64,000 nt of DNA from Escherichia coli (GTDB taxonomy: Bacteria; Pseudomonadota; Gammaproteobacteria; Enterobacterales; Enterobacteriaceae): NCBI RefSeq assembly GCF_050320075.1, contig NZ_CP190018.1; one strand, given 5' to 3'. Numbering within the stretch: the stretch's first letter is position 1; every line of letters starts with the position of its first letter. Below, piece by piece: positions 57,001 through 60,000 of the stretch. Made by a program: the position numbers.

Positions 57001-60000
57001 TCCGGTAGCTTCGCTGGAAGGTCCAGGACGCTGGATCGGCGAGGTTTACCCGACCAGTCATTTTCTGACTATTGCCCGCGGGACGTTCTCGAAGGCGCTG
57101 GATTTGACTGATTTGTGGCAACTTTTTATCCCGTTGCTGATAGCCATCCCGCTGGTGATGGGCTTAAGCATCCTGCTGCTGAAAAAACAGGAGGGATGAT
57201 GCGCCATTTACGCAATATTTTTAATCTGGGTATCAAAGAGTTGCGCAGTTTGCTCGGTGATAAAGCGATGCTGACGCTGATTGTCTTCTCGTTTACGGTG
57301 TCGGTGTATTCGTCAGCGACCGTTACGCCAGGATCGTTGAACCTCGCGCCGATCGCCATTGCCGATATGGATCAATCGCAGTTATCGAACAGGATCGTTA
57401 ACAGCTTCTATCGCCCGTGGTTTTTGCCACCGGAGATGATCACCGCCGATGAGATGGATGCCGGGCTGGACGCCGGACGCTATACCTTCGCGATAAATAT
57501 TCCGCCTAATTTTCAGCGTGATGTCCTCGCCGGACGCCAGCCAGATATTCAGGTGAACGTCGATGCCACGCGCATGAGCCAGGCATTTACCGGCAATGGG
57601 TATATCCAGAATATTATCAACGGTGAAGTGAACAGCTTTGTCGCGCGCTACCGTGATAATAGCGAACCGTTGGTATCGCTGGAAACCCGGATGCGCTTTA
57701 ACCCGAACCTCGATCCCGCGTGGTTTGGCGGGGTGATGGCGATCATCAACAACATTACTATGCTGGCGATTGTATTGACCGGATCGGCGCTGATCCGCGA
57801 GCGTGAACACGGCACGGTGGAACACTTACTGGTGATGCCGATAACGCCGTTTGAGATCATGATGGCGAAGATCTGGTCGATGGGGCTGGTGGTGCTGGTG
57901 GTATCGGGATTATCGCTGGTGCTGATGGTAAAAGGCGTGCTGGGCGTACCGATTGAAGGCTCGATCCCGCTGTTTATGCTGGGCGTGGCGCTCAGTCTGT
58001 TTGCCACCACGTCAATCGGCATTTTTATGGGGACGATAGCGCGTTCAATGCCGCAACTGGGGCTGCTGGTGATTCTGGTGCTGCTGCCGCTGCAAATGCT
58101 TTCCGGTGGATCCACGCCGCGCGAAAGTATGCCGCAGATGGTGCAGGACATTATGCTGACCATGCCGACGACACACTTTGTTAGCCTCGCGCAGGCCATC
58201 CTCTACCGGGGTGCCGGATTCGAAATCGTCTGGCCGCAGTTCCTGACGCTGATGGCAATTGGCGGCGCGTTTTTCACCATCGCACTGCTGCGATTTAGGA
58301 AGACGATTGGGACAATGGCGTAATTACAGTTGCCCGATGCGTAAGCTTATAGGGTCTACGCATTGGTGCAATTTATTGAATTTTAGTTTTTTTTAGGCCG
58401 GATAAGGCGTTTATGAACTGACCACCAAAACCTGGACAGTTTCAGTTAACCGGCTTTTTGATACTCAGTCCGGTATTCAGGGCAAGATTACGAAAGCCTG
58501 CTCCCCGCAAGGACTGACGCGAGAAATGACATGAATCGCTCCCCTGCGGCGACTCTTGTCATAAGAGTGCCGGAGCGTTTTTCCATCAATTACAATGACG
58601 TCTTTATCATCTGAAGAATGGCAGTCACGCATCCAGTTAATAAAGCACTCGTGAAATTTTTCAGGACTGATACAGGATACAACTCTGGCAATGGTATCGT
58701 GAACAGGAATACCATTTTCAAAATCACCATATTGCTTCAAAAAATCGAGATGAGTTTCCCCAAAATCCTCTATATCTTCCCAACCTTCTGCACCAGAAAT
58801 AACGGCACAAATAGTCAAAAGTAGAATATCTGACAATTTATGCTCCACTTTCCAGTCTTGTCTGTAATCGGGGATAATAGAAATATGTTCCATCAATTTT
58901 TTAAGTTTCATTTTGTTCTCCTTAATTATGTAAGGAGTATTTGATCATGTATAAGCAATGGAAAACAGCTTTAGGTAATAAGGAATATCTCAATTATTGA
59001 ATATTTAGTGCGAATTATTTAGTACAAAAAAGCAGCGTTGCGTGATCTTTCCCTGCCCTTTATTCATAAACACATGGATATGGTGATCAACGGTGGTCTG
59101 ATGGAGGCGCAGAGCCTGAGTAATCATGACTGAATTTCAGCCTTCAGAAGCCAGAAAAATGGCTTTAATACAATCGCAGCCCCGCTTTTCACAACATTAT
59201 GCTTATAATATGAAAAATATCTTGCCTTGCATCTTTGTGCCTACGGCATTGGATGATCTTTCCCTAACCTTATAGTTTCTTTTAGCCTTTCAAGCCTTAG
59301 CAATTCAACCTCGGCTTTAATATAGCCATGTGAGGCAGCCATTTTCAGCCAATTAATTGCATTATCTAAATTATAATATTTTAAATAGGAATCATCCTCC
59401 TCTGAGGATAGAATCATAGCATAATTATATTGCGCTATGATATTTCCTTGAGATGCAGACCTTGCCAGATATTTAATTTGCTTGGGTATATTAAAGCAAA
59501 CATATGTATAATATTGATGTAATCGATATGACGCATCACCATCCCCGCCCTCAGATTTAATATCAAGTTCATATCTTTGATTTTCACTTAAATTAAACGA
59601 TTCAGATGTTGAGCTTATTTCAATGTTATGGAGCTTAATAGGGGGGGGGATTTCACCTCCATATGAACAACAAGAGAAAAAGAAAACATTTGCAATCAGA
59701 ATAAATAAAAAGCACTTCATGTTGCCACCTTTGTTATTTTATATCACTTGGTCTCATAACTTTGCCAGGAGTGGAAGAAATGGGTTGACCTGAAGGTCCA
59801 AACGTTATCCAGCGGCCCATATTATTACCAGTTATGACATTATTACTTGTGTCAATTGCCGAGATATTATCCGTAAGTCCTGTTTGGATCGTATTAAAAA
59901 GAGGAGTATTATTATCCCACGCCATCCATACTTGCCATTGTGTATCAGCTCCAGTGACATTTGCATGAAGTGCTCTGGCTAACTTGCTGGCAAAAGATTT

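Follow-up and report, generated by a model that had tools for sequence, protein, structure and literature searches.

Beside the core gene yhhJ, at the distal end of an Rhs island of Escherichia coli, lies an open reading frame (ORF) that resembles the beginning of an H-repeat transposase, and the question raised by this locus is how the rest of the insertion sequence (IS) was lost and whether what is left is anything more than a scar. The first-pass annotation of the window (the whole stretch of 64,000 nucleotides analysed in this work) had considered that only the N-terminal third of the protein remains and had attributed the loss to decay at the downstream end of an rhs element. It is well established that H-repeats (H-rpt) are parts of Rhs elements and that they are classified in the ISAs1 family, and early papers of the Hill laboratory reportedly presented them as components of Rhs elements. 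H-repeats of E. coli have long been described in Rhs elements, and the copy in the window is already a pseudogene of the ISAs1 family in RefSeq. The features identified around this copy are listed in Table 1.

Table 1. Features of the H-repeat remnant and its surroundings. Positions are those of the window unless another sequence is named; L002 is the K-12 interval used as reference.
Feature	Position	Strand	Remarks
yhhJ, ABC transporter permease	57199..58323	+	Core gene flanking the island, convergent with the IS gene; PGAP
REP-containing spacer between yhhJ and the IS1397 fragment	58324-58413
IS1397 (IS3 family) 65-bp terminal fragment	58414..58478	.	Within the REP after yhhJ; abuts the H-rpt right end
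ISAs1-family transposase remnant ORF	58477-58911	-	144 aa; codons 1-129 YhhI N-terminus, codons 130-144 frameshifted tail
H-rpt/ISEc1-like (ISAs1 family) IS remnant	58478..59055	-	578 bp = 1291 minus 713; both termini present
Right terminal inverted repeat, CAGGGCAAGATTACG (read inward)	58478..58492	+	Sequence read; IS1397 homology ends here
Retained last 37 nt of the transposase gene	58488..58524	-	Frame 1 translation compared with the YhhI C-terminus
Deletion junction	58524..58525	.	713 bp equivalent to L002 6766-7478 (yhhI codons ~130-367) gone
Left terminal inverted repeat, CAGGGAAAGATCACG (read inward)	59041..59055	-	Five-copy alignment
IS630-family transposase fragment	59047..59175	-	PGAP call only; directly outside the H-rpt left end
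sel1-repeat protein WP_000649530.1	59241..59720	-	PGAP; Pfam Sel1/TPR matches weak
Orphan RHS repeat-associated core/C-terminal toxin pseudogene, internal stop	59734..60711	-	PGAP; Pfam
yibA-like HEAT gene, intact	60741-61598
H-rpt of ETEC1701 with the same 713-bp deletion	L005 3989-4531		Compared with window 58478-59055

The remaining part of the transposase gene

The ORF listing and the reading of the sequence revealed an ATG start preceded by an AAGGAG ribosome-binding site. The sole Pfam match of the 144-aa product was the domain DDE_Tnp_1_assoc (PF13808, E=7.3e-35), and the curated NCBIfam model of ISAs1 family transposases (NF033564, cut-off of 70 bits) was matched with 135 bits (E=2.7e-39) over profile positions 1-102 of 314, whereas the intact YhhI protein of K-12 fills this profile from 1 to 314. 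In YhhI (378 aa), Pfam locates DDE_Tnp_1_assoc at residues 8-94 and DDE_Tnp_1 at residues 102-343. The alignment with YhhI covers residues 1-129 of the ORF, which means that 34% of YhhI has been kept, residues 130-144 being out of frame. The kept part comprises the DDE_Tnp_1_assoc domain and the first ~28 residues of the DDE domain, the remainder of which was removed by the deletion described below. No match to DDE_Tnp_1 (PF01609) was found in the Pfam scan of the 144-aa ORF. Membership of the ISAs1 family is thus indicated by the curated model, with partial cover of the profile, and the complete DDE catalytic domain characteristic of the family is not present.

The description of this ORF as approximately the N-terminal third of an H-repeat transposase is correct, since the domain and family matches are strong and far beyond chance, and the coordinates given in the first-pass annotation proved to be exact. 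Because DDE_Tnp_1 is missing and the 713-bp deletion took codons ~130-367, the copy is a defective member of the ISAs1 family, a pseudogene. This is the proper label for it and agrees with RefSeq: in E. coli YZLc1-3 (NZ_CP123240.1:281871-345870), which differs from the window at 4 of 64,000 positions, the segment equivalent to window 58513-58911 was annotated by PGAP as a pseudogene, 'ISAs1 family transposase, incomplete, missing C-terminus'.

A promoter scan of the ORF yielded 2 sites against 3.0 ± 1.9 expected, which is no better than chance. When the 129 homologous codons were compared with those of ETEC1701, which carries the same deletion, 3 non-synonymous and 2 synonymous changes were counted, too few for a selection test; they are compatible with relaxed constraint, in a count too small to decide. 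Neither of these two lineages, which are ~2.7% apart, has lost the open 144-aa frame, its ribosome-binding site or its upstream region, and an N-terminal fragment could conceivably be expressed from the ORF.

A single internal deletion of 713 bp

The lesion was delimited with the K-12 rhsB-yhhH-yrhC-yhhI-yhhJ interval (L002) as alignment reference. Two collinear blastn blocks were obtained, the first between window 59061-58525 and L002 6229-6765 (94.2% identity) and the second between window 58524-57900 and L002 7479-8103 (97.1% identity). As these blocks adjoin in the window and are 713 bp apart in K-12, the lesion is one internal deletion, equivalent to L002 6766-7478. An identical gap of 713 bp was found against three full-length references (K-12 yhhI, K-12 ydcC and the ATCC 8739 copy), so that the alignment to full-length H-repeats, which had been proposed as the way to find the deletion endpoint, placed the junction at 58525/58524. 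The lesion is now defined to the base, a descriptive addition to a known pseudogene.

Since 713 is not a multiple of 3, the ORF continues for 15 out-of-frame codons and then reaches a stop. The retained last 37 nt of the gene encode 11 C-terminal residues of YhhI in a frame that differs from that of the 144-aa ORF, and after translation of all three frames past the junction only the last 12 codons of YhhI reappeared. Over 58479-58524, 45 of 46 positions are identical to the K-12 H-repeat in its 3' end and right terminus. The lesion is therefore an internal deletion that left both IS termini intact, and not a terminal truncation or an erosion of the island end. The earlier view that only the N-terminal third remains is valid for the protein but not for the DNA, in which the end of the gene (58488-58524) and the right IS end to 58478 have been kept.

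No microhomology was detected at the junction CATGTCATT/TCTCGCGTC, which has no bases in common with either deleted end in the three full-length references, and the repeat scan of K-12 H-rptB revealed no direct repeats at the breakpoints. With a blunt junction and breakpoints devoid of direct repeats, a deletion mediated by microhomology or by repeats was ruled out.

Ends of the element

Homology between the K-12 copies H-rptB and H-rptC (ydcC) extends for exactly 1291 bp (L002 6235-7525). At the left end, five copies with unrelated flanks (window, ETEC1701, K-12 yhhI, K-12 ydcC and ATCC 8739) share their first homologous base, the C of CAGGGAAAGAT at window position 59055, and all their flanks diverge outside it; the coordinates of the IS ends are accurate to ~1 bp. 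The left and right terminal inverted repeats match at 13 of 15 positions. Inverted repeats are thus present at both ends of a unit that normally has ~1.3 kb and is reduced here to 578 bp, instead of 1291, owing to the deletion.

No direct repeat indicating a target-site duplication was found across the IS ends, the flanks being ...AAAGGG/IS/...GAATACC in the window and ...ACGGC/IS/GAATACA in K-12. The lack of this duplication is expected if one flank was later rearranged, and it is no argument against membership of the ISAs1 family. Transposition of H-repeats has reportedly never been observed (PMC3032704). Because both inverted repeats remain, mobilisation in trans by other H-repeat copies would be possible in principle; such copies were found at 1-14 places per genome (median 5).

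Neighbourhood of the remnant in the Rhs island

On the yhhJ side, the gene order according to PGAP is rbbA, yhhJ and the IS remnant. The remnant had been described as lying directly after yhhJ and before the orphan toxin and immunity genes; this order was confirmed, but the REP spacer and the IS1397 fragment (Table 1) intervene between yhhJ and the H-repeat. The IS1397 scrap can be aligned with the terminal part of an IS1397-family element annotated at nlpE-yaeF in ATCC 25922 and diverges from it exactly at the H-repeat inverted repeat. In both the window and K-12, the sequence changes at 58478/58479 from H-repeat to the terminal 65 bp of IS1397, an IS noted for its insertion into REPs. It is this scrap, and not the H-repeat, that forms the outermost piece on the island side. 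In K-12 MG1655 the same scrap lies between yhhI and yhhJ, where it carries no annotation.

On the opposite side, the 40-aa ORF contained in the IS630 scrap gave no match in the NCBIfam scan. The sel1-repeat protein that follows is presumed, from its position, to be the immunity partner of the adjacent orphan rhs C-terminal (rhs-CT) gene. In this rhs-CT gene, the Pfam RHS family (PF03527) matches ORF 60034-60699 with E=2.8e-15; this ORF stops once a PxxxxDPxGL-like motif and the beginning of the toxin domain have been read, and the gene continues in ORF 59734-59925. Because of this internal stop, the most distal toxin cassette is also decayed, its putative immunity gene being intact. Past the yibA-like HEAT gene there are NTF2-fold immunity genes, pentapeptide pseudogenes and a DUF6258 gene, as annotated by PGAP and in agreement with our own Pfam scan, and the main RHS core gene is located just past the window end.

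As the rhs genes are on the minus strand, the side of the Rhs element occupied by the IS remnant is its downstream (distal) one. The remnant is distal to the rhs core gene and to the CT/immunity modules and has yhhJ on its far side, which, judged from the yhhJ border, is the location expected for an RhsB-type element at the nikR-yhhJ locus. The earlier interpretation as decay at the downstream end of an rhs element was accordingly right about the family, the position (that of K-12 yhhI) and the fact of decay, but the mechanism is an internal 713-bp deletion in which the ends were kept. The distal end of the island is layered as REP, IS1397 scrap, H-repeat, IS630 scrap and orphan cassettes, and it constitutes a small worked example of such layering; the remnant would mark the border between the orphan toxin/immunity cassettes and the core genome.

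A large number of otherwise identical genomes (e.g. strain 7/2, AR_0067 and WCHEC strains) carry an extra IS1 of ~777 bp within the segment equivalent to window 59075-59300, in the area of the sel1 3' end and the IS630 scrap. This extra IS1 is missing from the window.

Comparison with other H-repeat copies

The closest counterpart is H-rptB of the K-12 RhsB element (yhhI, b3484), which occupies the same chromosomal site in the same orientation, convergent with yhhJ, and has the same terminal repeats and the same right-hand junction, including the IS1397 scrap. The nucleotide identity between both copies is 94% over the kept 5' 537 bp and 96-97% over the 3' end and flank, and the K-12 RhsB locus is collinear with the Rhs layout of the window. 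The window copy differs from yhhI in the absence of 713 internal bp, with which the DDE domain has gone, and in its left flank.

The ybfD/ybfL-type copies and the partial copy at the yafV locus of ATCC 8739 are, like the window copy, decayed Rhs-associated ISAs1 copies annotated by PGAP as partial or interrupted. In the ybfD-type copies the junction probe matches as two pieces ~507 bp apart, and their lesion therefore differs from that of the window, whereas the break in the partial copy of ATCC 8739 is located 12 bp from the left breakpoint of the 713-bp deletion, and this copy abuts another, full-length H-repeat. To judge from these alignments, the lesions of the ybfD-type, ATCC 8739 and window copies are independent events; the 12-bp closeness of the breakpoints may be a coincidence or may reflect a fragile part of the element. 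In the ATCC 8739 yafV locus (L006 2831-4531), the full-length H-repeat has an internal stop and the second, partial H-repeat that it abuts is a 5' piece.

Arrays of orphan rhs-CT and immunity genes (the 'C-terminal tips' of polymorphic toxins) are also comparable, since the remnant is placed at the distal end of such an array; unlike the members of these arrays, the IS remnant itself is neither a toxin nor an immunity module. H-repeats have been described as accompanying C-terminal tips downstream of rhs genes (PMC3032704).

Left flanks and mosaic divergence

Whereas the right flank of the H-repeat is constant, the same left IS terminus is joined to at least three different flanks, found in the window, in K-12 and in ETEC1701. 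The window has the IS630 scrap at this place, and ETEC1701 has an Imm57 immunity pseudogene that starts exactly at the IS end; aligned with the window, ETEC1701 shows no gap between 57000 and exactly 59055, with 97.3% identity. In K-12 the left flank is the yibA-like pseudogene yrhC, joined at the point equal to window 61237 (L002 6234/6235), and the 2181 bp present at window 59056-61236 are absent. This segment of the window holds the rest of the yibA-like gene, the orphan rhs-CT, the sel1 gene and the IS630 scrap. The K-12 state looks like the product of a 2181-bp deletion, or of a recombination, ending exactly at the IS terminus.

The mismatches between ETEC1701 and the window are clustered in the left ~120 bp of the IS, with 14 in 58938-59044 against 5 in 58525-58937, and the five-copy alignment revealed that variant left-end sequence types occur in differing combinations among H-repeat copies. 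This pattern of divergence suggests a crossover between H-repeat copies. Taken together, the flanks and the mosaic would fit either rearrangements with an endpoint at the IS terminus or crossing-over between H-repeat copies, both processes being in keeping with the name "rearrangement hot spot".

Distribution of the deleted allele

The survey comprised 5426 complete E. coli genomes. The 40-mer spanning the deletion junction was found in 275 of them (~5%), at one place in each, which was always chromosomal and never on a plasmid. Spread of the deleted element in the manner of a MITE is not supported by this single chromosomal place per carrier. The 40-mer of the window-type left junction (IS630 scrap/H-repeat) was present in 255 of the 5426 genomes and that of the ETEC1701-type left junction (Imm57 pseudogene/H-repeat) in 19, all of them from porcine ETEC/O139:H1 strains, so that the two left junctions add up to 274 of the 275 carriers. 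The deletion is thus a stable allele, found in two flank contexts, and could be used to mark lineages at the RhsB locus.

The right junction with the yhhJ side was much more widespread (2109-2110 of the 5426 genomes), and the genomes with it, apart from the 275 carriers of the deletion, gave two blocks spanning 1214 bp (501 + 713), annotated as yhhI or ISEc1. An intact H-repeat is present at the same site beside yhhJ in ~1835 genomes, K-12 and BL21 included. In the remaining genomes, homology to the window is lost either around the REP (~58410) or where yhhJ stops (~58323). A full-length ancestor with the left flank of the window was not found among the surveyed genomes, where the 255 with that left junction do not exceed the 275 carriers of the deletion.

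Proposed history and alternative explanations

The explanation that we favour, with a probability of about 0.9, is that the locus contains a dead H-repeat copy (ISEc1-like, ISAs1 family), killed by a single 713-bp internal deletion at the distal end of an RhsB-type element. According to this explanation, an intact element of 1291 bp would once have been located at that end, beside yhhJ, after landing in, or beside, an IS1397 copy lodged in the REP; that an IS had been inserted at the site is suggested by the family membership. In one lineage, a single illegitimate deletion free of microhomology would then have removed the 713 internal bp with codons ~130-367, leaving the 144-aa ORF and the final 37 nt of the gene, together with the inverted repeats at the two termini. 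As expected from its family, the remnant would be unable to transpose by itself. It would have been inherited, or exchanged by local recombination, at one locus, rather than spread as a mobile element, and probably has no role beyond that of a scar and a patch of homology.

A different proposal, which we consider improbable, is that the deleted H-repeat acts as a fixed, two-ended homology anchor devoid of transposase for the swapping of orphan Rhs cassettes, and that the 144-aa fragment could in addition modulate other H-repeat copies. It retains some attraction because three left flanks join the same terminus, the right flank is constant and the left-end divergence is mosaic. A functional remnant in a broader sense, with the 144-aa fragment as a trans-acting inhibitor or regulator of other H-repeat copies, or with the 578 bp as a non-autonomous element or a recombination anchor for orphan Rhs cassettes, seems slightly less probable still. 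The frame open in two diverged lineages and the two intact inverted repeats would agree with it, as would the meeting of several left flanks at one terminus and the mosaic mismatches in the left ~120 bp, which fit a crossover between H-repeat copies. However, the element occupies one place per genome in 275/275 carriers, with no sign of movement, the dN/dS counts are too small and the promoter signal is not above chance. Truncated transposases that act as inhibitors occur in other IS families, and the idea of an inhibitor is an analogy with them. The flank differences could all predate the deletion only if the deletion recurred or was spread by recombination.

Compared with a single internal deletion, a terminal truncation, in which the distal end was eroded or cut by a neighbouring rearrangement and only the 5' third of the IS was left, is very unlikely. 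The protein-level picture, the 'missing C-terminus' label of PGAP and the family profiles, covered in their first third only, would all be explained by it, but the 47 bp beside the junction (58478-58524) correspond to the 3' end of an intact H-repeat with its right terminus, the flank past 58478 is the same as in K-12 and the missing DNA is strictly internal. The chance of a sequencing or assembly artefact, i.e. a gene really of full length with its frame broken by an error, is negligible, because nothing was found in its favour, the lesion is not a single-base indel but the physical absence of 713 bp, no frame past the junction carries the DDE domain, the junction is identical in 275 independent complete genomes, and the full-length frame that according to the first-pass annotation would overturn its reading was not recovered.

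The result is an ordinary one that matters little outside this locus; nothing in it would surprise a specialist and its added value is descriptive.

Other features of the window

A silver and copper resistance island (sil/pco), with the genes copM, silESRCFBAP and pcoABCDRSE, is located at window ~23976-50300, after the yhhiN-side core genes. It is bordered by a TnsA-endonuclease fragment and an IS1 on one side and by ISCro1 (IS66 family) on the other. Near this island, the DUF2776 and DUF4049 genes are truncated by another IS1 (window ~50800-53000). The haem uptake genes chuA and chuS are present at window 1602-4661. The chuA gene is a marker of phylogroups B2, D, E and F, and its presence fits the list of carriers of the 713-bp deletion, which includes a strain labelled ST38.
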